Notes under the pieces: generated by a model
The model's input: the letters and a program-made list of their open reading frames with translations, nothing else
What the model was told of the DNA's origin: nothing
Databases searched by the model: none
Shown: positions 921 through 30,607 of the stretch, one piece after another
Numbering within the stretch: the first letter of the stretch is position 1
Layout of the letters: each line of letters begins with the position of its first letter
IMG/VR virus record: IMGVR_UViG_648276647_000016
Location: 1-34,499 of that record
Strand: one strand, 5' to 3'
From: a virus
Taxonomy: Duplodnaviria > Heunggongvirae > Uroviricota > Caudoviricetes
DNA length: 34,499 nt
Program-made: the position numbers and the translations under genes

Positions 921-935
921 TTACCTTTCAGGTGA
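921..935. promoter_or_regulatory. Operator-like palindrome TTACC-N5-GGTgA (one mismatch)
   Basis: TTACCTTTCAGGTGA; flanking sequence (cataaatacgaacagatattacc) resembles the -10/operator part of the PL-like promoter at 28395-28438. Confidence 0.4.
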
Positions 936-972: not shown

Positions 973-992
973 TACTGTATAAATATACAGTT
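973..992 (+). promoter_or_regulatory. LexA (SOS) box
   Basis: taCTGTATAAATATACAGtt: perfect CTGT-N8-ACAG palindrome with AT-rich centre, about 20 bp upstream of the ATG at 1012 and its GGAGAAG Shine-Dalgarno (999-1005). Confidence 0.8.
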
Positions 993-1011: not shown

Positions 1012-1269
1012 ATGCAGCAGTATCACTATCCACTGGAAGACGGATTTACCGAAAGGATTCACACGCCGGGAGGCGTCAGGTCACTGGTGGAGGGATCGCA
1101 CTTGATGAAATTACTCCGGGATCTCGATAAGGATGGATTTAATGTCGATGGCCCACTTGCCGAACTGACTGCACTGATTAACTACGTCACCAGCTCGCAG
1201 ATGTCTATGCAGGATCTGCAAACACATCTCGACTATTGTGCCGAACAATTACTAAAACAAACCAGATAA
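1012..1269 (+). CDS. Small antirepressor-like protein (paralogue of the C-terminal domain of the Bro-N antirepressor), LexA-box controlled
   Basis: 85-aa ORF with good RBS. Aligns by eye to residues ~150-220 of the 1585-2280 product (IHTPGGVRSLVEGSHLMKLL..DGxxVxGxxAELT..QDLQTH vs IHSPSGVLGLTENSLLMNLL..DGHDVSGAAAELT..RDIQTH). Confidence 0.6.
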   Translation: MQQYHYPLEDGFTERIHTPGGVRSLVEGSHLMKLLRDLDKDGFNVDGPLAELTALINYVTSSQMSMQDLQTHLDYCAEQLLKQTR

Positions 1270-1272
1270 GGT

Positions 1273-1315
1273 TTGAAATTACCAAGTGGAGTGCTTATAT
1301 TTACCTTTGCGGTAA
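1273..1315 (+). promoter_or_regulatory. Sigma70-like promoter (TTGAAA-N17-TATATT) with operator palindrome TTACCTTTGCGGTAA (1301-1315) over the predicted start
   Basis: Read directly from sequence; operator matches the motif found in the immunity region. Confidence 0.5.
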
Positions 1316-1407
1316 ATTTACATCGCACTCCTCTTGTGCCATAGTAATCGGGCACTGGCAAAATCCAGTGCCGGGATTGGCGTCCCGGATTACTAAAAGG
1401 CGCATTC

Positions 1408-1427
1408 ACCGCGCAAGCGGTTTTTTT
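1408..1427 (+). terminator. Rho-independent terminator (ACCGC-GCAA-GCGGT + T7)
   Basis: 5-bp GC stem with GNRA loop followed by TTTTTTT, about 110 nt downstream of the promoter at 1273-1300. Confidence 0.55.
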
Positions 1428-1584
1428 ATGCGTATAGCACGGCCACATTCGTATTATGGTGGGCTGTGTGGGGGCACCGAAAGGTGCGCCGGGTCCTTTT
1501 AGCCGGTTACGCCAACCCTGCACAGTTCACCACCAACCGATTGGCGTCGGTAGTGGTGATTAACCAGACTAAAAGGTAACCACT

Positions 1585-2280
1585 ATGACAGCTACAAAAA
1601 GCACGTCCATTTTTTCTTTCGAATCCCAAGCCGATATACGAGTAATCGTCATTAATGGTGAGCCATGGTTTATCGCTTCAGATGTTTGTCGGGCTATAGG
1701 CATAGCAAACCATCGAGATGCTGTTCGAAAACTTGATGATGATGAGAAGGGCGTCGCTTCAACCGACACCCCTGGCGGTGAGCAAGAATCGATCATCATC
1801 TCCGAGTCAGGCCTCTACACACTGATCCTCCGCTGCCGCGATGCGGTGACACCAGGCACTATCCCCTACCGCTTTCGTAAATGGGTTACAGGTGAGGTTC
1901 TTCCTCAGATCCGCCGCACCGGAAGCTACATTAAAAACTCGCTCCCGCAGGAAGAACGCATAAAGATGGTTGCCGACCAGGTTGCCAACGCCACGGCGTC
2001 AGCAGTAATGCAGGCGATGAAGATAGAGAACAAAACCTACAGCGCCCCGCTGAAGCCAGGATACCGCAGTCTGATTCACTCGCCGTCTGGTGTTCTCGGC
2101 CTGACGGAGAACTCACTGCTGATGAATCTGCTGAACCAGTTACAGGACGACGGGCACGACGTATCGGGCGCGGCGGCGGAACTGACCACCATGTTCTGCT
2201 ACATTGTCGGTGTGAGCAAATGCCTGCGTGATATCCAGACGCACGCGGAGTACATCAACGACAAGGCAGGGTTCTTCTGA
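1585..2280 (+). CDS. Antirepressor, Bro-N domain family
   Basis: 231 aa; N-terminal region (EPWFIASDVCRAIGIAN ... ESGLYTLILRCR) matches my recollection of the Bro-N/antirepressor fold. RBS AAAAGG 8 bp upstream. Confidence 0.7.
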   Translation: MTATKSTSIFSFESQADIRVIVINGEPWFIASDVCRAIGIANHRDAVRKLDDDEKGVASTDTPGGEQESIIISESGLYTLILRCRDAVTPGTIPYRFRKWVTGEVLPQIRRTGSYIKNSLPQEERIKMVADQVANATASAVMQAMKIENKTYSAPLKPGYRSLIHSPSGVLGLTENSLLMNLLNQLQDDGHDVSGAAAELTTMFCYIVGVSKCLRDIQTHAEYINDKAGFF

Positions 2281-2764: not shown

Positions 2765-5239
2765 TTATTGCGGAGTGACATCCTGAGGTCGCCACCAGTA
2801 TGTCTGGTTAAACTCTTTCTTTGAACGTTGCTCCATTTTACGCAAATAGCCTGGTGAAAAATACTCCTGCATCTGGTTAAAGATCATGTGATCGAGAGCC
2901 GCCTTCAAGTACCAGAGATTCGCACCAGGCATCAAACCTTTCCCCAGCTTAACCAGATCACCACCAGTCTGCTCATTCTTCCCTTCCACAGCATTTAACG
3001 GTATGCCCTGAGCAATCTTCACTACGTCATCAACCAGACCAACTACCGGGCCAAGCATCGACGCTAGTGCGCCGCTCCCGTACCTGGTGTGGTCAGAGAA
3101 AAGAAAATCACCGTACAACCCTGCCCCACCACCTTTTAAAAATGCATTTATCCAGAATTTAACCATGTTGTCACCGGTCATTTCTTTTGGATTTCTCCCA
3201 TTAATAAGATCAGTAATCTGCATGGAAAGAGCACCAAGCATGGTTGTGCTTGCTAAAAACGTTGCTATATATGCTGCACGCCCACCAGCAGACGGCATCC
3301 CCATAGCTCTATGCCAGTGACGCATAACTACCGAGATAGGGAACGATTTAAACAGGAAAACACTTCTCGTTAATTCACCTTTCCATGTTCCACGCTGAAT
3401 ACCAGAACCGGTTATCAGTTGCTCACGTGCTCCCGGTGTAATAACAGCCATATCAACTTCTTCAGTTACGGCACCGAGCAGTTTACGCATTGCCTCAAAT
3501 TTCACGCGTTCAGGCTCACCAAGATGTTTAACTGCTGAATCAGGGATACGCATAATGCTTTCCGGTGTCAGCATCGTATTATTACCGTTCCCCCAGTCCT
3601 CCTGTTGCGCCAGCTTCCATACGCTCCAGTCTGTGTCAGTAATCCCTTTGCTTTTCAGGATACGAAAATCAGAGTCATCGAGGCTACGAAGGTCTGGCGT
3701 CCGTGACACTACTTCTCCCAGGCTTCCCATCATGGTTACGCCATAGGCGCGCTTGTGCGCATCTGACCATGCTGTAAGCCCACTGGCACGCATTACGGCC
3801 GTTGCCGCCCAACGAGACACTGACGGCCCCATATTATCCATCGCCCAGCGGTTAACGCTGCCAAGTAGAGATTCCATCGCCAGACCAGCGCGGCGCGCCC
3901 GCACAAGTTCTGTACGGTTCGTTGGGTCCATAGCTTCAAGCTGGTTGCGGAATAACTGGTTCATTGGAAGGTTGGTAACCTTCGCCGACAGATACATGGT
4001 TCCAAGATCAGAGAACGATGACAGCAACGCGGATCCGAGTCTGCTGGCAACCAGCCAGTTGCGGATATTGTCAGACCATCGCGCGATGTGCGGATTCGCT
4101 ACAGGCTGTGTCTTTCCGGAAATAAAGTTGTACAGATTCTCTGTGTTGTTCGCCAGCCGCTCGACTTTACCGGTTTTACTCGGGTTAGCTGTTGCCGTTT
4201 CTGCCTTCACCTGATCAAGAAGAGAGCGGAAAACATGATCGGGGTTTGGGCCATATGTTTCCACCAGTGCAATATCTTTACTGATACCTTCCAGGTGACC
4301 GACCATGATTTCCCATAGAGAGCGATCGCCATAAAGTTGCTGATATTGCAGATAGGAATCTGCATCTTTGAAATGTATCTGTCGTGATGCATTACCACGG
4401 TTAGCACGTGCGCCGGAAATTCGCATTCCGGTATCAGTAAGCTTATTCAGCCCACCAGTAGCGATCGTGTTATAAGCCTCTCCAAGAAATGCAGACAACT
4501 CAGCATCGTTCATCAGTTGTCCATCGGCTCGGGTATAATATTTGCGATCCAGCTTACCTATAACATCGCTAACCCACTTATCCTTTGATACCGCCCCAAC
4601 CTTTTCCATAGAATGATGTTGAGGGATCCCCCAGTTTTCGAGATAGCCAATGTCCCCACCAGCATCATTAAACCGGCGGCGCAGTAGCTCTGTCACTTCT
4701 CTCCACGCCTTAGCACCTTTTCTTGCTTTAGCATTGCCAGTATTTTGCCCCCGCATTTCATATACCAGGTCACGTACGCCCGCTTCATCTTCAAACAGAC
4801 CAAAAAAGCGAGGATCAACTGCTTCGAATGCCCCCTGCAATTGACTCAATGCATAATCACGGGTGGCTTTTGTTCTGGATTCAACAGAGAGGAAATTCGA
4901 TTTACCGTCTGCATTAAAAGCAATAGTACGGTTAAGAGCACCGAGTTTCCCATCAGCCCCTTGATAGCTATTGATAAATTTATCCAATCTCTGACGTGCG
5001 GCTATAGTGAGGGCCACACGACGTTTATTTAATGCCGCTTCTCGCTGTAATTCTTCAGATGCCAATTGTGCTGCTCGATATAGCCGCTCTGATTCGGAAA
5101 GTTGTCGCCACGACATCGGGTCATCACGAGCAATGGAGCGCATATTTCGATAAATGCGGTCTTCAATGTTCTGTATTTCTCGCGCCGTTAACGTGCGCTG
5201 CGCCGCCTGCTGGACCGCTTGTATACATTCCTGTCTCAT
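2765..5239 (-). CDS. Internal virion / ejection protein, large (T7 gp16-like by position and size)
   Basis: 824-aa ORF, last large gene of the late operon after two other internal-protein genes; assignment is by synteny and size, not a recalled sequence match. Confidence 0.5.
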   Translation of the reverse strand: MRQECIQAVQQAAQRTLTAREIQNIEDRIYRNMRSIARDDPMSWRQLSESERLYRAAQLASEELQREAALNKRRVALTIAARQRLDKFINSYQGADGKLGALNRTIAFNADGKSNFLSVESRTKATRDYALSQLQGAFEAVDPRFFGLFEDEAGVRDLVYEMRGQNTGNAKARKGAKAWREVTELLRRRFNDAGGDIGYLENWGIPQHHSMEKVGAVSKDKWVSDVIGKLDRKYYTRADGQLMNDAELSAFLGEAYNTIATGGLNKLTDTGMRISGARANRGNASRQIHFKDADSYLQYQQLYGDRSLWEIMVGHLEGISKDIALVETYGPNPDHVFRSLLDQVKAETATANPSKTGKVERLANNTENLYNFISGKTQPVANPHIARWSDNIRNWLVASRLGSALLSSFSDLGTMYLSAKVTNLPMNQLFRNQLEAMDPTNRTELVRARRAGLAMESLLGSVNRWAMDNMGPSVSRWAATAVMRASGLTAWSDAHKRAYGVTMMGSLGEVVSRTPDLRSLDDSDFRILKSKGITDTDWSVWKLAQQEDWGNGNNTMLTPESIMRIPDSAVKHLGEPERVKFEAMRKLLGAVTEEVDMAVITPGAREQLITGSGIQRGTWKGELTRSVFLFKSFPISVVMRHWHRAMGMPSAGGRAAYIATFLASTTMLGALSMQITDLINGRNPKEMTGDNMVKFWINAFLKGGGAGLYGDFLFSDHTRYGSGALASMLGPVVGLVDDVVKIAQGIPLNAVEGKNEQTGGDLVKLGKGLMPGANLWYLKAALDHMIFNQMQEYFSPGYLRKMEQRSKKEFNQTYWWRPQDVTPQ

Positions 5240-18830: not shown

Positions 18831-18867
18831 TTGACATTTAACGCACAAATTATTACCTTTAGGGTAA
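18831..18867 (+). promoter_or_regulatory. Promoter-like element (TTGACA at 18831-18836) with operator palindrome TTACCTTTAGGGTAA (18853-18867)
   Basis: Resembles the PL-like promoter/operator at 28395-28438; oriented toward the tRNA module. Confidence 0.45.
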
Positions 18868-19189: not shown

Positions 19190-19266
19190 GTGGCATTAGC
19201 TCAGCTGGACAGAGCAACCGCCTTCTAAGCGGTTGGTCGCAGGTTCGAATCCTGCATGCCACGCCA
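19190..19266 (+). tRNA. tRNA-Arg (anticodon UCU)
   Basis: Hand-folded cloverleaf: acceptor GTGGCAT/ATGCCAC, D-stem GCTC/GAGC, anticodon stem ACCGC/GCGGT with loop CUUCUAA, T-arm GCAGG-TTCGAAT-CCTGC, discriminator G and encoded CCA. Confidence 0.85.
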
Positions 19267-21387: not shown

Positions 21388-21980
21388 TGATTACCATCCT
21401 GACGTTCTTTGAGTCGCTTCCTGGCTGCTGCTATGCGATCAGCAATTGTCACATTCACATTAACATCCAGACGTTCTTTGAACGCGTTGACATCAACATG
21501 CTTACCAATCAGCTCAAGATTCTTCACCTTGTCAGGCCATTTAATTTTTTTGAGGATTGTCTCTATCGAATCCTCGTTCATGTTCATGATGGTCGATGAC
21601 AGATCAAAGCCGCTAAGCGTAGTGCGCCAGATTTTCGGCCACTCGCGGATTGGCTTAAGGCTCCCATCGTCGTTGAGGATATCAATCACGTCCATCTGGT
21701 CGATCTCCACCAGGCGCATGAGAACGTAATCAGCACTGACACGCATTCGTTTGTTGCGCTCTTCCATCAGCTCGGCAATCCGTTTTTGAATGCGTTCATC
21801 GCGCATCATGACACTGGCTTTAACTGCCGCTGTATTTGGGGAGAATCCTGCGTTAATCGCTGCCTGAGTCTGGTTTTCAGGCGTTTTGATGTATGACTGG
21901 CAATAAGCCTCCTGCATTGCTGTTAGTGGCTTAAATTGCGTTGATTTGCGTTTATAGGTTTTAGGTTCAGCAGGCATCAT
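21384..21980 (-). CDS. Terminase small subunit
   Basis: Position immediately upstream of the large subunit with overlap. Start placed at the ATG at 21978-21980; the track start at 22058 is a TTG preceding a low-complexity Thr/Val stretch. Confidence 0.55.
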   Translation of the reverse strand: MMPAEPKTYKRKSTQFKPLTAMQEAYCQSYIKTPENQTQAAINAGFSPNTAAVKASVMMRDERIQKRIAELMEERNKRMRVSADYVLMRLVEIDQMDVIDILNDDGSLKPIREWPKIWRTTLSGFDLSSTIMNMNEDSIETILKKIKWPDKVKNLELIGKHVDVNAFKERLDVNVNVTIADRIAAARKRLKERQDGNQ

Positions 21981-22054
21981 AACCACCGTGGTAATAGTTA
22001 CCGTTGTGGTAATAGTACCATGCAAAATAAAGCCGCCATAGTTGGCGGCAGTAT

Positions 22055-25256: not shown

Positions 25257-25332
25257 TTACCCCTTAGGTAATTAAAAACCACATAAGACATGAAATCAAT
25301 AGATATTAGAACATTTTATTACCTATAAGGTA
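25257..25332 (-). promoter_or_regulatory. Promoter flanked by two operator palindromes (TTACCCCTTAGGTAA 25257-25271; TTACCTATAAGGTAA 25318-25332)
   Basis: Minus-strand reading (tctaatatctattgatttcatgtcttatgtggtttttaattacc) parallels the PL-like region (ctcatatctattgacatcaaaccaaatacgcataattattacc). Confidence 0.5.
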
Positions 25333-25370
25333 ATTATATAGGCGTAAAAAAATGCGCTATCGCGCTGGTA

Positions 25371-26156
25371 TTACTTGATAAATCCTGCCGCCTTTCCCCG
25401 CCTGTATTCCTCCATCAGCCACTGCGCCGGTGTTATTCCCCCCAGGGTGGCTGCGTTAGGCATGCACCCGAAACTTCGCCCTAGTGGATGGTAAACGTCT
25501 CTCCCTGTGTCCGGAGGTGTACTCATGGGTTCTGGCTTTGCCTGTATGCTGATCACTGGATCGGGTATCTGCTGTCCGGAAGCCACCTTTTTCGCCCAAT
25601 CATCGAGCAGCCTGCGCGCGTGTTTCTCAACCTCAATCTCGCTAAGCTGGCGCTGATACATTGCACGGCGGGTATCACATACGACCCAGTACATAACCGG
25701 ATGCCGCCACGGGAATCTTTCGGGACCGCCAGGATATAAACTTTTTTCCTTGCTGTACCGGTGAAACTCCGCCATCACATCGTCAATGGTGACACCAAGA
25801 ACCATCTTGCTGTCTTTGCACCACTTGATAAATTGCCCAGGCGACGGCCAGAACGGAGATTCACTGGCGCGGGCGTGGCGCATACCAGCAGAAACCTGTT
25901 CACGGGTTCGGATCCCACCTTCGGCAAACGCAGCAATCCACTGCTGTTTTGCAGCGACTTCCTGCTCTGGCGTCTTCAGGTTGGTTACCACTGCCGCCGG
26001 AAACAGTTGTTTCAGCTGTTTGAAAAGGGCATCAACAAGCCTCTCTGCTGACATGTTCACCACATTGTCATTGTTGACGTACTGATGCTCATAACCTGAC
26101 ATGCGAGAAAGGGCTTCTCCGTCACGGTTTTGTATCGCGGTAAAAACGTTGTTCAC
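25371..26156 (-). CDS. Replication protein P-like (DnaB helicase loader)
   Basis: GGIRTREQVSAGMRHARASESPFWPSPGQFIKWCKD matches my recollection of lambda P (NGITTMEQVNAGMRVARRQNRPFLPSPGQFVAWCRE). Start placed at the GTG at 26154-26156 after a GGAGGA Shine-Dalgarno, giving a GTGA overlap with the O stop. Confidence 0.75.
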   Translation of the reverse strand: MNNVFTAIQNRDGEALSRMSGYEHQYVNNDNVVNMSAERLVDALFKQLKQLFPAAVVTNLKTPEQEVAAKQQWIAAFAEGGIRTREQVSAGMRHARASESPFWPSPGQFIKWCKDSKMVLGVTIDDVMAEFHRYSKEKSLYPGGPERFPWRHPVMYWVVCDTRRAMYQRQLSEIEVEKHARRLLDDWAKKVASGQQIPDPVISIQAKPEPMSTPPDTGRDVYHPLGRSFGCMPNAATLGGITPAQWLMEEYRRGKAAGFIK

Positions 26157-26968
26157 AAGAAATCCTCCCACGCTTCAGGGCTGTTCCAGTGCGGAACGTT
26201 GTTATCAGGTAATGTTGATTGCTTCTGTCTGCTAATCTGCAGCCGCCTTGCCAGCTTCTGCTCCCACTGTGCCTGATGGTATGCCTTACCCTCAGCCATC
26301 CAGTAAATTCTGAATTCTGCAAGTTCCTGTGCCGTTGGCAGACTGTCCAGGTAGATTCCCTGCAATGAGCTTTTCCGAAGAAAGTCATCTGATGGTTGCC
26401 ATTGTTCATGCATGACAAATTTGCCTAATTGCCCTAGCCCACCAGGAGGAACAAAGTTATTCATCACGGCGTTGTTTGCGCCGGGGTCATGAGGCACAGA
26501 ATCCCCGGTTTTTGTCCTGCTCTCCCTCTCTTGGTTAAATGACTGGTTATATGACTGGTTCTGGATCCCGTTTTTGGGATCATTCAACATCCCGTTTTTG
26601 GGATCATTCAACATCCCGTTTTTGGGTATATTCCCGTTTTCGGGAACATTACCGTTTTCGGGTTTATTACACCCTTCTAGGTTGCCTTTAATGTTCCCTT
26701 TTTTGGTTATATTAAGAGAGAAAACCCGCACTCTTTTCGTCGCTCCCTTTCTCTCTCCGGTATCTGAAATAAGCCCCATTTTCATGAGCGATATAAGCCC
26801 GGCCTGTACGGTTTTTTTATTCAGGCAAGTGTCTTTAACGAGGCGTTCTATGCTGGGGTAGCAGAGGTTATATTCATCGGCTCTGTCAGCCATCGAGAGC
26901 AGTATGAGCTTTAATGATGAGCTACCTGGATCTGTCTCCCAGGCCCAATCTGTTGCATGTCTGCTCAT
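26153..26968 (-). CDS. Replication initiator O-like protein (N-terminal winged-helix, central repeat region holding the origin)
   Basis: 271 aa; strong RBS (GGAGATT); internal peptide repeats NDPKNGML are encoded by the DNA iterons; immediately upstream of P. Confidence 0.65.
   Translation of the reverse strand: MSRHATDWAWETDPGSSSLKLILLSMADRADEYNLCYPSIERLVKDTCLNKKTVQAGLISLMKMGLISDTGERKGATKRVRVFSLNITKKGNIKGNLEGCNKPENGNVPENGNIPKNGMLNDPKNGMLNDPKNGIQNQSYNQSFNQERESRTKTGDSVPHDPGANNAVMNNFVPPGGLGQLGKFVMHEQWQPSDDFLRKSSLQGIYLDSLPTAQELAEFRIYWMAEGKAYHQAQWEQKLARRLQISRQKQSTLPDNNVPHWNSPEAWEDFL
26564..26668. repeat. Origin iterons: two perfect 24-bp direct repeats (ATCCCGTTTTTGGGATCATTCAAC) plus three degenerate copies, each containing TCCCG-N-CGGGA-type dyad symmetry
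   Basis: Directly visible tandem repeats inside the O-like gene, followed by an AT-rich stretch (26669-26720), as in lambda ori. Confidence 0.7.
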
Positions 26969-27250: not shown

Positions 27251-27283
27251 ATTTGGTTTTTCATTACCTTTGAGGTACGAATA

Positions 27284-27312
27284 GATATGAAAAGACCGCC
27301 GGGTGGCGGTCT
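27284..27312 (-). terminator. Rho-independent terminator downstream of the cro-like gene (AGACCGCC-ACCC-GGCGGUCU + UUUUCAU)
   Basis: Perfect 8-bp GC stem at 27293-27312 followed on the minus strand by a U-tract; tR1-like position. Confidence 0.55.
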
Positions 27313-27333: not shown

Positions 27334-27564
27334 TCATGAGTAGAAGAAGTATGCCAGTTCTGCTTTTGAGCGCAGCCATTGTCTTGTTTTACAGGCTTTA
27401 AAAAGCCCATTCATCAATACCTTACCTGGCATTTTGCGCTTACCTGTTAAGTGAGTCTGGATATAGTGACTCGTCGTTCCGGCTTCCTGTGCGAAGGCTT
27501 CACGCTCATCCGGAGTAAGTGCAAGCCAGTGCTTTTTGAAATCGAAATGTCCGTTATCGCTCAT
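27334..27564 (-). CDS. Cro-like HTH regulator (YdaS/Cro-type)
   Basis: 76 aa with an HTH-like segment (EAFAQEAGTTSHYIQTHLTGKRKMP); divergent from the repressor gene. Confidence 0.6.
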   Translation of the reverse strand: MSDNGHFDFKKHWLALTPDEREAFAQEAGTTSHYIQTHLTGKRKMPGKVLMNGLFKACKTRQWLRSKAELAYFFYS

Positions 27565-27600
27565 AGCTATTGCCTGATATTTATTTCAGATAATAAATAT

Positions 27601-27663
27601 TCACCCATAAGGTAACAAAAATCAAGGATAGTTACCTATGGGGTGCATTTACCTGTTGGGTAA
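27601..27663. promoter_or_regulatory. OR-like operator cluster: TCACCCATAAGGTAA (27601-27615), TTACCTATGGGGTGC (27632-27646), TTACCTGTTGGGTAA (27649-27663)
   Basis: Three copies of the TTACC-N5-GGTAA palindrome in the 154-bp divergent intergenic region between the cro-like and repressor genes. Confidence 0.6.
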
Positions 27664-27718
27664 TATTGCTTTAAATTGAATCACCTACTGATTCATATAT
27701 GAGGCGATTTTCCAGAAA

Positions 27719-28303
27719 ATGAAAAGTATCCAGGACGTCCGCAGGCAAAATCTCAACGACTTGATCGACCGTGAATTCAATGGTGTTCAGACGCGGATGG
27801 CAGAAAAACTTGGAACTCAGGCAAATCTGGTAAACCGCTGGGCTCTTGGCAAGAAGGTTATCGGCGACCAGGTTGCTCGAAAAATTGAAGCTGCCGCCAA
27901 TAAACCCCGTAACTGGCTTGATATCGATCGCTCGCTTTCTCATGAAGGTTTTCAGCCTGTCGGCCCAAGCGACATTGGTCAGCTGGCGGCTCACAACCTG
28001 GAACGCTGGATGAGCGAAAGCCGCGACCTTTCAACGCAGGGAAAACTTCACCGCGCATCCGGCGTCGCCCAGGTGACAATCAGCCGCCTGTTAAACAATG
28101 AGGTCAGCGTTTCCATTTCCACCCTGGAGAATGTTGCATCCGCATTCGGGCGTCACGGATATGAACTACTGATTCACCCGCACGACCCTGCGACTATCAA
28201 CTATGACCGCTCGCGCTACGCATTGTTACCCGAAACCGAGAAAGCAAAGATTGAAAGTTACATTGAATTTGTCATCAACCAGAACGAAAAAAGCAAACAA
28301 TAA
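27719..28303 (+). CDS. Prophage immunity repressor, tandem HTH domains, no S24 peptidase domain
   Basis: 194 aa with two XRE-like HTH segments (QTRMAEKLGTQANLVNRW and LHRASGVAQVTISRLLN); no Ala-Gly/Ser-Lys autocleavage module; divergent from cro and followed by a terminator. Confidence 0.65.
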   Translation: MKSIQDVRRQNLNDLIDREFNGVQTRMAEKLGTQANLVNRWALGKKVIGDQVARKIEAAANKPRNWLDIDRSLSHEGFQPVGPSDIGQLAAHNLERWMSESRDLSTQGKLHRASGVAQVTISRLLNNEVSVSISTLENVASAFGRHGYELLIHPHDPATINYDRSRYALLPETEKAKIESYIEFVINQNEKSKQ

Positions 28304-28322: not shown

Positions 28323-28350
28323 TAAGCCGCCTCATGGCGGCTTTTTTATT
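28323..28350 (+). terminator. Rho-independent terminator (AAGCCGCC-TCAT-GGCGGCTT + TTTTTATT)
   Basis: Perfect 8-bp stem plus T-tract 20 bp after the repressor stop. Confidence 0.7.
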
Positions 28351-28360
28351 GCCCATGCTA

Positions 28361-28438
28361 TTACCTAATGGGTAATTTTTTTAACTCATATCTATTGACA
28401 TCAAACCAAATACGCATAATTATTACCTCAACGGTAAC
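28361..28438 (+). promoter_or_regulatory. PL-like promoter (TTGACA 28395-28400, -10 near 28417-28423) bracketed by operators TTACCTAATGGGTAA (28361-28375) and TTACCTCAACGGTAA (28424-28438)
   Basis: Consensus -35 hexamer, AT-rich -10, and the downstream operator lies over the predicted transcription start. Confidence 0.6.
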
Positions 28439-28611: not shown

Positions 28612-28911
28612 ATGAACGTTAATCAGCAGAAAAATCTTCAAAAAATCATGCTGGCATTCGACAAGGACTACCGCCTGTCAGAACAGCTATATGACCGACA
28701 AGTTGAACTGATCGAGAGCATCCGGCTTCATCAACTGGCCTCAACTTTTGACGCTGTAACAGGCAAAGGAGTTCGCCAGGAAGTGCTGGAGGCAGCTAAA
28801 GACAGCCCTGAGTTCGAAGAACTTATGGATGCCTACCGGCGCGAGGCAATGGCTATTATCGCCCGCTGGGATCTGGCGGATCGGATTGATGGGCAGAGGG
28901 AAGCGGCATGA
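28612..28911 (+). CDS. Hypothetical early protein
   Basis: ORF from the ATG at 28612 (track start 28597 is further upstream in frame); stop overlaps the exonuclease start (ATGA). Confidence 0.45.
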   Translation: MNVNQQKNLQKIMLAFDKDYRLSEQLYDRQVELIESIRLHQLASTFDAVTGKGVRQEVLEAAKDSPEFEELMDAYRREAMAIIARWDLADRIDGQREAA

Positions 28912-29729
28912 AACCGGGAATTTATTTCGACATCAGCAACGAAGACTACCACGCCGGGGACGGCGTGAGTAAGTCGCAACTGGACATGGTTGCCAAGAAT
29001 CCGGCGCTTCTTAAATGGGTTCAGGCAGCACCAGAAGACGAAGAGAAAAAGTCTGCACTGGATATGGGAACCGCATTGCACTGTCTGCTTCTGGAGCCTG
29101 GAGAATTCAACAAACGCTTCATTGTTTCACCGAAATTCGATCGTCGGGCGAAACAAGGTAAAGCTGACGAAGAAGCATTTCTTCGTGATGTAGCGGATAT
29201 GGGGATTACGGTACTTGATGCCGAGCAGTGGCGGAAACTGGAGCTTATGCGTGATAGCGCAATGGCTCACCCGGCGGCACGCTGGATGCTGGAAGCACCT
29301 GGTTACTGCGAAGCATCAATGTACTGGAATGATGAAGAGACTGGTGAGTTGTGCCGCATTCGTCCAGACAAATGGCTGAACGAGCACAACGTGATCGTCG
29401 ACGTGAAAAAGGTTGCAGATATGGACCGTTTTGCACGCCACATCGAGGAGTTCCGCTACCACGTGCAGGACGCAATGTACCGCGAAGGAGCAATGAGGGT
29501 TACTGGTCAGCCACATGGTTTTTTCTTTCTTGCCGTGAGCGAAAGCATTGATTGTGGTCGGTATCCGGTACGCGTGTTCGAGCTGGATGCGCCGGATGTC
29601 GATGCCGGGCACGCTCTGTTCCGCCGGGATCTGAATACCTATCACGAATGCCGCATCAACGATGAATGGGGCGGAGTGGAAATTATTAAACGCCCTGACT
29701 GGGCACGTAAACAGGATATGTACGTATGA
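28908..29729 (+). CDS. PD-(D/E)XK-family exonuclease (RecE C-terminal domain / Cas4-like fold)
   Basis: 273 aa; N-terminal GIYFDISNEDYH and later IRPD...VDVKK motifs; translationally coupled to the annealing-protein gene. Confidence 0.65.
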   Translation: MKPGIYFDISNEDYHAGDGVSKSQLDMVAKNPALLKWVQAAPEDEEKKSALDMGTALHCLLLEPGEFNKRFIVSPKFDRRAKQGKADEEAFLRDVADMGITVLDAEQWRKLELMRDSAMAHPAARWMLEAPGYCEASMYWNDEETGELCRIRPDKWLNEHNVIVDVKKVADMDRFARHIEEFRYHVQDAMYREGAMRVTGQPHGFFFLAVSESIDCGRYPVRVFELDAPDVDAGHALFRRDLNTYHECRINDEWGGVEIIKRPDWARKQDMYV

Positions 29730-30607
29730 GCAATGATATCGCAATCACATCACAACCAGGCGCAACTGTAGGCACTGCTGCGGCAATATTCAGCCCCGAG
29801 GGCATGAATCAACTGGTGCGTTTCGCGGAGTTGATGTCACAAAGCAAAGCGACTGTACCGAAACATCTTGAAGGCAAACCTGCCGATTGTCTGGCGGTGA
29901 CCATGCAGGCGGCACAGTGGGGAATGAACCCTTTCGCCGTGGCGCAGAAAACGCATGTGGTAAACGGAACGTTAGGCTACGAAGCACAGTTGGTAAACGC
30001 GGTCGTATCCTCTTCCAGCCTGCTGGCGACACGCCTGAATTATCGCTGGAGCGGTGACTGGTCGAATGTTAACGGCAAAACAGATAAATCACCGAATCTG
30101 ACGGTAACTGTGTCAGCAGTTCTTAAAGGAGAAGCAGAACCCCGTGAGCTTACCATCAGTATGGCGCAAGCCGGAGTGCGTAACTCTCCATTGTGGGAAC
30201 AGGATCCGCGCCAGCAACTTGCCTATCTTTGCACGAAACGATGGGCTCGCCTGCACGCTCCTGATGTACTTCTCGGTGTTTACACCCCAGACGAATTACA
30301 GGAAACGGCACCGCGCGTTGAGCGAGACATTACTCCGCAAACGACCACTGCTGCGGGAATGAACAGTCTGATCAACGCTAAACCAGCGAAAAAGCCTGAT
30401 GAGCAAACGCGTAAAGAGGATAGCCGTGATCCAGAAGAAATGCTGATGGCCTTTACCAGCGCAGCGATGAATTACAGCACTGTCTCCGAACTGGATAAGG
30501 CTTACAAATACATTGCACAAAAACTTTCAGATGATGACGAACTGCTGGCAAAAGCCACCGACGTTTACAGCGTTCGTCGGGAAGAATTAAACGAAACATC
30601 TATATAA
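29726..30607 (+). CDS. Single-strand annealing protein, RecT/Redbeta family
   Basis: 293 aa; segments GMNPFAVAQKTHVVNGTLGYEAQL and ERDITP resemble my recollection of lambda Bet; paired with an exonuclease. Confidence 0.6.
   Translation: MSNDIAITSQPGATVGTAAAIFSPEGMNQLVRFAELMSQSKATVPKHLEGKPADCLAVTMQAAQWGMNPFAVAQKTHVVNGTLGYEAQLVNAVVSSSSLLATRLNYRWSGDWSNVNGKTDKSPNLTVTVSAVLKGEAEPRELTISMAQAGVRNSPLWEQDPRQQLAYLCTKRWARLHAPDVLLGVYTPDELQETAPRVERDITPQTTTAAGMNSLINAKPAKKPDEQTRKEDSRDPEEMLMAFTSAAMNYSTVSELDKAYKYIAQKLSDDDELLAKATDVYSVRREELNETSI

Follow-up and report, generated by a model that had tools for sequence, protein, structure and literature searches.

The immunity region of the DNA stretch analyzed here (34,499 nt in all, hereafter the window) comprises two divergent genes and the spacer between them, and an intrinsic terminator was predicted downstream of each gene.

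27719..28303, + strand: rep, encoding a 194-aa immunity repressor, ortholog of phiV10 p40, ZX5 ORF21, epsilon15 gp38, and SPC32H Rep
27334..27564, − strand: 76-aa gene, ortholog of epsilon15 gp39 and phiV10 p41, heading the leftward early transcript
28324..28343, + strand: intrinsic terminator after rep (terminator prediction)
27293..27312, − strand: intrinsic terminator after the 76-aa, Cro-like gene (terminator prediction)

The coordinates and divergent orientation that the first-pass annotation had given for the two open reading frames were reproduced exactly. Since the limits of these frames on the spacer side are 27564 and 27719, the spacer spans 27565-27718 and measures 154 bp, as had been claimed.

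The window as a whole is a Uetakevirus (phiV10/epsilon15-like) prophage of E. coli. Rep shares 99% identity with phiV10 p40 and ZX5 ORF21, and the DNA flanking rep is 97-98% identical to the phiV10 and ZX5 records over 1.2 kb; this is essentially the same gene in a different lysogen. Identity to epsilon15 Rep (gp38) is 43%, and SPC32H Rep (PDB 5D50_A) was matched over aa 1-190 at ~43% identity (phmmer, E = 5e-42). Of 5426 complete E. coli genomes, 540 have the same immunity region, and the Uetakevirus records with Rep and those with the small antirepressor Ant (described below), 35-37 in number, are nearly the same set. When the nearly identical ZX5 ORF21 was overexpressed, free phage disappeared and lysis-gene transcripts fell by >99.9%, the phenotype of a lysogeny repressor (PMC9782041).

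Domain organization of Rep

Pfam HTH_3 matched Rep in two stretches (E = 1.3e-9), with the best match at aa 106-147, and the N-terminal segment at aa 21-61 gave a below-threshold Pfam match to YdaS_toxin (E = 3e-4). The two HTH-like segments noticed initially are therefore real, and the phiV10 database record for p40 already mentions "two helix-turn-helix motifs." The description of Rep as a tandem HTH protein stands as far as the number of segments goes; it probably does not hold for the second segment as a DNA reader, whose SPC32H counterpart is described as a dimerization domain. Three domains were delimited.

27719..27898, + strand: N-terminal HTH DNA-binding domain, aa 1-60 (profile match, homolog alignment, and model)
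27965..28171, + strand: middle domain, aa 83-151, a second HTH_3-like domain of five helices (Pfam, model, and fold match)
28172..28300, + strand: C-terminal tail, aa 152-194, ~43 aa (homology and model)

A recognition helix is predicted at aa 35-42 (NLVNRW); N36, R40, and W41 are invariant across the family, and NLVNRW is identical in epsilon15 Rep. By homology, the middle domain would correspond to the dimerization domain (MDD) of SPC32H Rep and the tail to its tetramerization/Ant-binding domain (CAD). The tail shares 52% identity with epsilon15 Rep, in contrast to 32% for the middle domain. An AF2 model of Rep was all-helical, with a low-confidence linker at aa 75-82 that is likely flexible, and the best Foldseek matches to the model were 5D50 and 5D4Z (TM 0.70-0.75 on the C-terminal half).

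Rep had also been said to have no S24 cleavage module, and this was upheld. Pfam returned no Peptidase_S24 match even at an E value of ≤10, there were no S24 structures among the fold matches of the model, and direct reading of the sequence revealed no Ala-Gly or Cys-Gly dipeptide. The features of lambda CI/LexA-type repressors, a C-terminal S24 domain with a Ser/Lys dyad and an Ala-Gly site, are not those of Rep. A cryptic S24 domain was rejected on the basis of the domain search, the fold search, and the all-helical model.

The divergent 76-aa gene

The first-pass description of this gene as YdaS/Cro-like proved accurate at the level of fold but not at that of sequence-profile membership. 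The 76-aa protein has the five-helix Cro/C1-type HTH fold and is Cro/YdaS-like by fold search. Neither PF15943 (YdaS_toxin) nor any other HTH family matched it at E ≤ 1 in Pfam or E ≤ 0.1 in NCBIfam, and its only profile match was PHROG 35, "transcriptional repressor" (E = 5.6e-13). It had no match among PDB sequences at E ≤ 10, and hhalign gave no significant alignment between it and the Rep family (E = 0.3).

Operators in the spacer and across the window

Three copies of a 15-bp palindrome with the consensus TTACC-N5-GGTAA lie in the 154-bp spacer, so that the three operators proposed there were recovered by motif search. The closest two, O2 and O3, are separated by 2 bp (17 bp center to center), not by the 3 bp first given.

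27601..27615, no strand: operator O1, TCACCcataaGGTAA, one mismatch, inside the core of the leftward promoter-like site
27632..27646, no strand: operator O2, TTACCtatggGGTGC, two mismatches (motif search)
27649..27663, no strand: operator O3, TTACCtgttgGGTAA, perfect, overlapping the conserved candidate rep promoter TTTACC-18-TAAATT
27590..27618, − strand: predicted sigma-70-like leftward promoter for the Cro-like gene, TTGTTA-17-TATTAT (promoter scan)

Across six phages of E. coli, Enterobacter, Klebsiella, and Salmonella, the O1-O3 half-sites keep exactly the same positions, whereas their spacers and flanking DNA vary; at the O2 position, epsilon15 and BUCT711 carry a perfect site. No rightward rep promoter passed the scan at the 9-of-12 threshold. 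The best conserved candidate is TTTACC-18-TAAATT, which was assigned by inspection of the alignment and with which O3, the strongest operator, overlaps.

In the entire window the operator set amounts to 13 sites, all of them intergenic. Twelve sites have at most one mismatch, against 0.59 expected, and none of 100 shuffles reached 12. The consensus equals that of the sites which the epsilon15 record labels as bound by "repressor," and the operators overlap promoter-like hexamers found by the promoter scan. Two sites belong to the antirepressor region treated below; those elsewhere outside the spacer are as follows.

28361..28437, + strand: operator pair 28361-28375 and 28423-28437, 62-bp spacing, bracketing the promoter of the rightward early (recombination) operon
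27264..27278, no strand: single operator, one mismatch, with the Cro-like gene terminator on one side and the replication genes on the other
25257..25333, no strand: operator pair 25257-25271 and 25319-25333, 62-bp spacing, 3' of the replication genes and before the next leftward operon
21980..22012, no strand: tandem operators 21980-21994 and 21998-22012, 18 bp center to center, immediately upstream of the first late gene
18853..18867, no strand: single perfect operator beside a TTGACA hexamer, upstream of tRNA-Arg(UCU)

The rightward early promoter between the 28361 pair reads TTGACA(28395)-17-AATTAT(28423), and an operator pair spaced by 62-63 bp at this promoter also occurs in five other phages. 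The 25257/25319 pair is likewise found in phiV10 and epsilon15. The first late gene is on the − strand, with its ATG at 21978. The tRNA-Arg(UCU) at 19190-19266 is the sole tRNA in the window (ARAGORN); a tRNA near the repressor has been reported for ZX5 (PMC9782041). No second conserved DNA motif was found to accompany the operators. The complete operator map, with its 13 sites and conserved spacing grammar, is absent from the public records examined.

Two antirepressor genes

The gene that had been proposed as a LexA-controlled antirepressor lies elsewhere in the window.

1012..1269, + strand: ant, 85-aa antirepressor, ortholog of SPC32H Ant (5D50_E match)
975..990, no strand: LexA box, CTGTATAAATATACAG, 22 bp upstream of the ant ATG
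921..935, no strand: Rep operator of the ant control region, followed directly by a conserved TTTGCA hexamer

This proposal was well founded: both the open reading frame and a LexA box are present, and the product is 87% identical to SPC32H Ant (5D50_E; E = 4e-46), which was crystallized together with SPC32H Rep. In its context, TACTGTATAAATATACAGTT, the box is near-consensus, fitting 18 of the 20 positions of the LexA consensus. The region upstream of ant, LexA box included, can be aligned to the ant promoter region of SPC32H, where the counterpart of the 921-935 operator is a perfect palindrome. A Rep operator beside the ant promoter could complicate a simple "LexA only" picture of its control.

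Downstream of ant lies a further module.

1273..1315, + strand: promoter-like site TTGAAA-17-TATATT, abutting a perfect Rep operator at 1301-1315 (promoter scan and motif)
1352..1427, + strand: isrK-like sRNA (RNA family search)
1452..1537, + strand: C4 antisense RNA (RF01695, 77.7 bits against a gathering score of 45)
1585..2280, + strand: second antirepressor candidate, 231 aa, Bro-N plus SPC32H Ant-like C-terminal domain, homolog of ZX5 ORF4

The 231-aa protein has a Bro-N domain (Pfam, E = 2e-21), and its C-terminal 77 aa match SPC32H Ant (E = 2e-13). As in P1 immI, the C4 RNA is encoded upstream of an antirepressor gene and is complementary to the translation-initiation region of that gene. 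Two of its segments are exactly complementary to the downstream leader: 1495-1502 is the complement of 1569-1576, which lies over the SD, and 1509-1515 is that of 1541-1547. When whole sequences were folded as duplexes with the downstream leader, C4 fell within the best 2% of shuffles, while the isrK-like RNA did no better than shuffles. P1 immI (c4-icd-ant) and Gifsy-1 isrK-anrP have the same components, namely, a repressor-operator promoter, a C4 antisense RNA, an isrK-like RNA, and an antirepressor gene. The present module differs from P1 immI in encoding a Bro-N domain with an SPC32H-Ant-like domain instead of P1 Ant1/2, and from both P1 immI and Gifsy-1 in adjoining a separate LexA-controlled ant. 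It is missing in SPC32H, and PAS61 and YDC107_2 apparently do not carry it either.

DISCUSSION

Full-length Rep homology, the absence of S24, a cognate Ant, a LexA box, and palindromes at the early promoters were all found, and we consider it very probable that this immunity region is an SPC32H-type Rep/Ant lysogeny switch of a Uetakevirus prophage. The window and Salmonella phage SPC32H (PDB 5D50 and 5D4Z) share the genus, a Rep that aligns over its full length, and the order of modules, and the LexA box and Rep operator occupy corresponding places upstream of ant. Epsilon15, of the SPC32H species cluster, has TTACC-N5-GGTAA operators in an equal three-site layout in its divergent spacer. SPC32H differs in that its Rep is ~43% identical overall and 32% identical in the dimerization domain, in its host (E. 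coli here), and in being without the extra isrK/C4/Bro-N-Ant module. PMC9638917 and PMC9986798 describe SPC32H Rep as a tetrameric repressor that is disassembled by tetrameric Ant, and PMC9986798 assigns it an N-terminal DNA-binding domain, a middle dimerization domain, and a C-terminal tetramerization/Ant-binding domain. In PMC7380047, which cites Kim and Ryu 2013, SPC32H induction is attributed to a LexA-controlled antirepressor and not to repressor cleavage.

In the proposed mechanism, the N-terminal HTH of Rep would read DNA, the second HTH-like domain would be reused for dimerization, and the C-terminal tail would form tetramers and dock the antirepressor. Rep would bind the 15-bp palindromes on and around phage promoters, with O1 in the core of the leftward Cro-like promoter, O2 and O3 on the rep side of the spacer, 62-bp pairs bracketing the rightward early promoter and a third early promoter, the tandem pair at the start of the late genes, and single sites flanking the antirepressor genes. 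Because Rep is without a self-cleaving peptidase module, DNA damage would act indirectly: LexA cleavage would free the ant promoter, and the 85-aa Ant would bind the Rep tail and bring the tetramer off the DNA, so that the early promoters fire. From homology we infer that Rep is inactivated in trans; by analogy with SPC32H, it would also tetramerize, dock Ant, and resist RecA-dependent cleavage, and its operators would act on the promoters to which they are assigned here. The finding is correct but ordinary, in that this type of switch is already known and has been solved structurally in the sister phage SPC32H.

Comparison with other systems places the Rep/Ant switch among several with related logic. 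Divergent repressor and Cro-like genes, three spacer operators, and an N-terminal HTH of the same superfamily (by fold matches) are shared with lambda CI, P22 C2, and LexA; however, those proteins have an S24 domain, which is absent from Rep, and a different oligomerization domain, and they are inactivated by cleavage, whereas sequestration is proposed here. The switch would depart from the textbook lambda model, with a repressor that does not cut itself being pulled off DNA by a partner made in the SOS response. A noncleavable repressor is paired with a small LexA-controlled antirepressor in coliphage 186 (CI/Tum) and in Salmonella Gifsy/Fels-2 (PMC7380047). The logic of these pairs is common to Rep and Ant. 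The proteins themselves are not known to be related: 186 CI is not known to be of the tandem-HTH/CAD type, nor Tum to be homologous to the Ant described here. Like Rco of Bacillus plasmid pLS20 (TetDloop), Rep has an N-terminal HTH and, by homology, a small C-terminal tetramerization domain and would be inactivated by a partner protein; Rco has no middle dimerization domain. SPC32H Rep has been proposed as an analog of pLS20 Rco (PMC9986798).

Several other readings of Rep were weighed. Both HTH segments might contact DNA, as the stronger Pfam HTH_3 match of the second segment would suggest, together with the invariance of Q118 and R123 of its would-be recognition helix among close homologs. 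However, Q118 is not conserved in epsilon15 Rep despite identical operator half-sites, it is the N-terminal NLVNRW helix that stays constant together with the TTACC half-site, and no second conserved motif lies beside the operators. Moreover, PMC9986798 gives this segment of SPC32H Rep as the dimerization domain and places DNA binding at the N terminus. On the SPC32H domain roles, the Q118 variation, and the missing second motif, we rejected a second DNA-reading HTH, a reading that we consider very unlikely. Cryptic self-cleavage, as in lambda CI, or destruction by a dedicated protease, as in ImmR/ImmA, is highly improbable. Beyond the general prevalence of cleavable repressors we found nothing in its favor, while against it stand the lack of an S24 match at E ≤ 10 and of Ala-Gly or Cys-Gly, an all-helical model in which the ~43 aa after the second helical domain are too short for an S24 fold, and neighboring genes that are small unknowns and recombination genes, none of which matched a protease family. 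An antitoxin-like regulator of the HigA/VapI type, suggested by the "VapI antidote" name in the phage BP9 record and by weak NCBIfam matches to HigA and HipB far under their cutoffs, is scarcely credible. There is no adjacent toxin partner gene, and this identity was rejected given the full-length match to a crystallized phage repressor, the operators on early promoters, and the repressor phenotype of ZX5 (PMC9782041).

A different question is which antirepressor acts on Rep. The main inducer in vivo might be the 231-aa Bro-N/Ant protein, or Ant might serve as trigger and the Rep-repressed, C4-gated Bro-N protein as latch; either seems rather unlikely. What speaks for the larger protein is its Ant-like C terminus, the promoter with an abutting perfect Rep operator that precedes its gene, the complementarity between the ribosome-binding site of that gene and a loop of the preceding C4 RNA, and the behavior of its ZX5 homolog, overexpression of which reduced the number of lysogens 1000-fold and the level of rep mRNA by 75% (PMC9782041). 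The antirepressor overexpressed in that study was this Bro-N homolog, not the small Ant, and the paper mentions neither SPC32H nor LexA (PMC9782041). Yet the LexA box precedes small ant only, and a gene under Rep repression would be unable to start induction. The module is also lacking in SPC32H, which PMC7380047 nonetheless reports to be SOS inducible via Ant, and apparently in PAS61 and YDC107_2.

Building on the Rep/Ant switch, and only as a tentative and doubtful proposal, we consider a two-stage induction in the E. coli branch in which Ant is the trigger and Bro-N/Ant the latch, combined with a 62-bp Rep clamp and Rep-dependent ant expression. Release of Rep from 1301-1315 may allow the isrK-like RNA, the C4 RNA, and the Bro-N/Ant protein to be made, and this protein may then hold Rep off DNA once the SOS signal fades. 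The fixed 62-bp (six-turn) spacing of the operator pairs may let a single Rep tetramer clamp the promoters between them, and expression of ant may rely on Rep being present, through the Rep site next to its −35 hexamer. Such a two-stage circuit may be previously undescribed for the E. coli branch of Uetakevirus.

The analysis is also of value for annotation, as the true Ant ortholog is labeled "hypothetical protein" in the records of phiV10, ZX5, and most relatives. With about one-tenth of complete E. coli genomes carrying this immunity region, its induction logic bears on the behavior of prophages under DNA-damaging antibiotics.

Rep is a two-HTH repressor without an S24 module

The genome in the window is phiV10-like and circularly permuted, its end falling within the integrase gene. 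The 1.2-kb immunity region is 97-98% identical to that of phiV10 and ~15 other E. coli Uetakevirus podophages and 77% identical to that of Enterobacter phage Tyrion; 540 of 5426 complete E. coli genomes carry the same region (at least 95% identity). Its two divergent genes and their 154-bp spacer lie exactly where the first-pass annotation had placed them, with an intrinsic terminator 3' of each gene.

27719..28303, +, rep ORF (194-aa immunity repressor, Rep)
28324-28343, +, intrinsic terminator 3' of rep
27334..27564, -, divergent 76-aa ORF (Cro-like gene)
27312-27293, -, intrinsic terminator 3' of the 76-aa gene

Rep had been described as containing two HTH-like segments and no S24 module. 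Two stretches were indeed matched by Pfam HTH_3 (E 1.3e-9), aa 106-147 being the stronger, and the N-terminal segment (aa 21-61) also gave a sub-threshold YdaS_toxin match. A domain search for a cryptic Peptidase_S24, set beforehand as a possible refutation, returned no match in Rep even at E<=10, and neither an Ala-Gly nor a Cys-Gly dipeptide occurs in the Rep sequence. The AlphaFold2 model (alignment of 36 homologues; pLDDT 80.8) consists of helices only: four at aa 4-59, five at aa 83-151 after a low-confidence linker (aa 75-82), and, in the tail, one long helix that ends the protein (aa 172-193). Beyond the second helical domain ~43 residues remain, too few for an S24 fold. By homology with the SPC32H repressor, Rep would not be cleavable.

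The repressor of Salmonella phage SPC32H (5D50_A) aligned with Rep over its whole length (E 5e-42), and 5D50 and 5D4Z were the best structural matches of the Rep model. In SPC32H Rep, the N-terminal HTH binds DNA, the second HTH-like segment mediates dimerization, and the tail is both the tetramerization domain and the antirepressor binder (PMC9986798, PMC9638917). Rep shares 99% identity with phiV10 p40, in whose record "two helix-turn-helix motifs" are already noted, and with ORF21 of phage ZX5, overexpression of which abolished free phage and lowered lysis-gene transcripts by >99.9% (PMC9782041). With the gene present in annotated, partly tested phages and the mechanism solved in a congener, the system is already known; the added value here is modest and lies in mapping all of the operators, in their spacing grammar, and in an accessory, putatively RNA-gated second antirepressor. 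In the phage BP9 record, Rep is labeled "VapI antidote."

Rep operators form a conserved, spaced set

Three operator palindromes had been reported in the divergent spacer, the closest pair 3 bp apart. All three are present, and the gap between the O2 and O3 cores is 2 bp (17 bp centre to centre).

27601-27615, O1, TCACCcataaGGTAA, 1 mismatch
27632-27646, O2, TTACCtatggGGTGC, 2 mismatches
27649-27663, O3, TTACCtgttgGGTAA, 0 mismatches

In a spacer alignment of six phages from four host genera, the O1-O3 half-sites are invariant, unlike the flanks and the 5 bp between half-sites. O1 sits inside a leftward promoter-like site (TTGTTA-17-TATTAT, 27618-27590); an alternative -35 hexamer, TTGATT, lies within the invariant block AAAAATCAA of the alignment. 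No rightward rep promoter passed the promoter scan, and the best candidate by conservation is TTTACC-18-TAAATT, which O3 overlaps.

Across the window, 12 sites fit TTACC-N5-GGTAA with no more than one mismatch (0.59 expected), and 0 of 100 shuffles reached that count. All sites lie outside real coding sequence; those at 21980 and 21998 fall only inside an artificial TTG-extended ORF, the true ATG being downstream at 21978. The epsilon15 GenBank record annotates 17-bp "repressor" binding sites with this same consensus (ATTACC-N5-GGTAAT). Rep and epsilon15 Rep share 43% identity overall (N-terminal module, 54%; middle, 32%; tail, 52%), yet their predicted N-terminal recognition helix, NLVNRW, is the same, which fits the shared half-site.

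Two perfect operators 62 bp apart (28361 and 28423) lie downstream of the rep terminator and bracket a predicted promoter, TTGACA-17-AATTAT, that points toward the recombination genes. The corresponding pair is kept in all five comparison phages at 62 to 63 bp, and a second 62-bp pair (25257/25319), after the replication genes, is common to the window, phiV10, and epsilon15. Pairs occur at 3959/4021 and 7076/7138 in L001, at 2304/2366 and 5656/5718 in L002, and also in L003-L005 (comparison-phage loci). The centre-to-centre spacing of promoter-bracketing pairs is fixed in six phages at 62 bp (once 63 bp), and the spacings of 31 (30) and 17 bp in the divergent spacer are equally conserved. Since 62 bp is about six helical turns, the spacing fits a Rep tetramer that could hold two sites on one DNA face. 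The remaining operators are as follows.

921 and 1301, operators flanking ant, the antirepressor gene
18853-18867, single perfect operator adjacent to a TTGACA hexamer and 5' of tRNA-Arg(UCU) (19190-19266)
21980-22012, tandem operators (21980/21998; 18 bp centre to centre) immediately 5' of the first late gene
27264, single operator after the Cro-like gene terminator

Given the sites at 21980-22012 and 18853-18867, the immunity repressor may act directly on late genes and tRNA-Arg(UCU).

Two side observations concern the neighboring genes. In the window, the exonuclease (28908..29729) and RecT (29726..30607) have an ORF each, and the two overlap; the phiV10 annotation has a single fused "recET" gene (p37). 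The replication-initiator gene (26153..26968; HTH_36 and DnaT domains) contains iteron-like tandem repeats at 26532-26670 (24 bp by 2.6 copies, 100% identical; 18 bp by 3.1 copies; 12 bp by 2.4 copies). The peptide NG(M)LNDPKNG recurs in their translation, and, like those in lambda O, the repeats are probably the phage origin.

A LexA-controlled antirepressor would inactivate Rep in trans

The first-pass annotation had proposed that Rep is inactivated in trans by a LexA-controlled antirepressor at 1012. The 85-aa product of ORF 1012..1269 (+) shares 87% identity (E 4e-46) with SPC32H Ant, which is the repressor's partner in the 5D50 structure. Upstream of ant lies TACTGTATAAATATACAGTT, a LexA box with a CTGT-N8-ACAG core at 975-990 (18 of 20 positions fit the LexA consensus). 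The upstream region can be aligned with that of SPC32H; among the elements kept are the LexA box and, directly 5' of a conserved TTTGCA hexamer, a Rep operator (921-942 region). In SPC32H this operator is a perfect palindrome (L007, the SPC32H locus, 803-823), and from it Rep may repress, activate, or loop the ant promoter. Homology of both partners to the SPC32H pair supports the proposed reading, and the description of genes, HTH segments, and operators holds as a whole.

In such Salmonella prophages, LexA cleavage allows production of an antirepressor that binds and inactivates the repressor, with no repressor cleavage (PMC7380047, citing SPC32H work). By analogy, Rep tetramers on the operators would keep early, late-proximal, and accessory promoters silent; DNA damage would remove LexA from the ant promoter, and Ant would then be made and bind the Rep tail, whereupon Rep would leave the DNA. 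Rep was found in 37 and Ant in 35 phage records, essentially one and the same set. Conservation is much higher in Ant (87% identity to SPC32H Ant) than in its target, Rep (43% to epsilon15 Rep). With the half-site TTACC/GGTAA and helix NLVNRW common to the genus, one may ask whether cross-immunity and cross-induction occur. Most E. coli Uetakevirus records, including phiV10, TL-2011b, and ZX5, list the Ant orthologue as "hypothetical protein."

An accessory module downstream of ant encodes a second Ant-like protein

The window phage differs from SPC32H in carrying a module at 1273-2280.

1273-1301, promoter-like site TTGAAA-17-TATATT, bordered by a perfect Rep operator at 1301-1315
1352-1427, isrK-like sRNA (full-length match, 77.9 bits)
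1452-1537, C4 antisense RNA (full-length match, 77.7 bits)
1585..2280, 231-aa gene, Bro-N domain plus C-terminal Ant-homologous domain (E 2e-13)

The C4 loop CCUUUUAG (1495-1502) is the exact complement of CUAAAAGG (1569-1576) in the Shine-Dalgarno region of the 1585..2280 gene, and a second complement to the leader, of 7 nt, lies upstream of the Shine-Dalgarno match. The immI region of phage P1 works by the same logic. A trigger-plus-latch circuit, in which Ant would act first and the putatively RNA-gated Bro-N/Ant protein afterward, is a reasonable hypothesis. The isrK/C4 stretch (1358-1560) is ~80% identical to many Stx1/Stx2-converting phages, in which the flanking protein genes are unmatched, and we infer that the cassette moves among otherwise unrelated phages. 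The ZX5 "anti-repressor" ORF4 is the Bro-N gene, the counterpart of 1585..2280, and not the Ant orthologue. Annotation problems also affect the ZX5 locus (L006; 513-770 and 967-1080); in ZX5, an "ash family protein" ORF covers the region matching the C4 RNA of the window.
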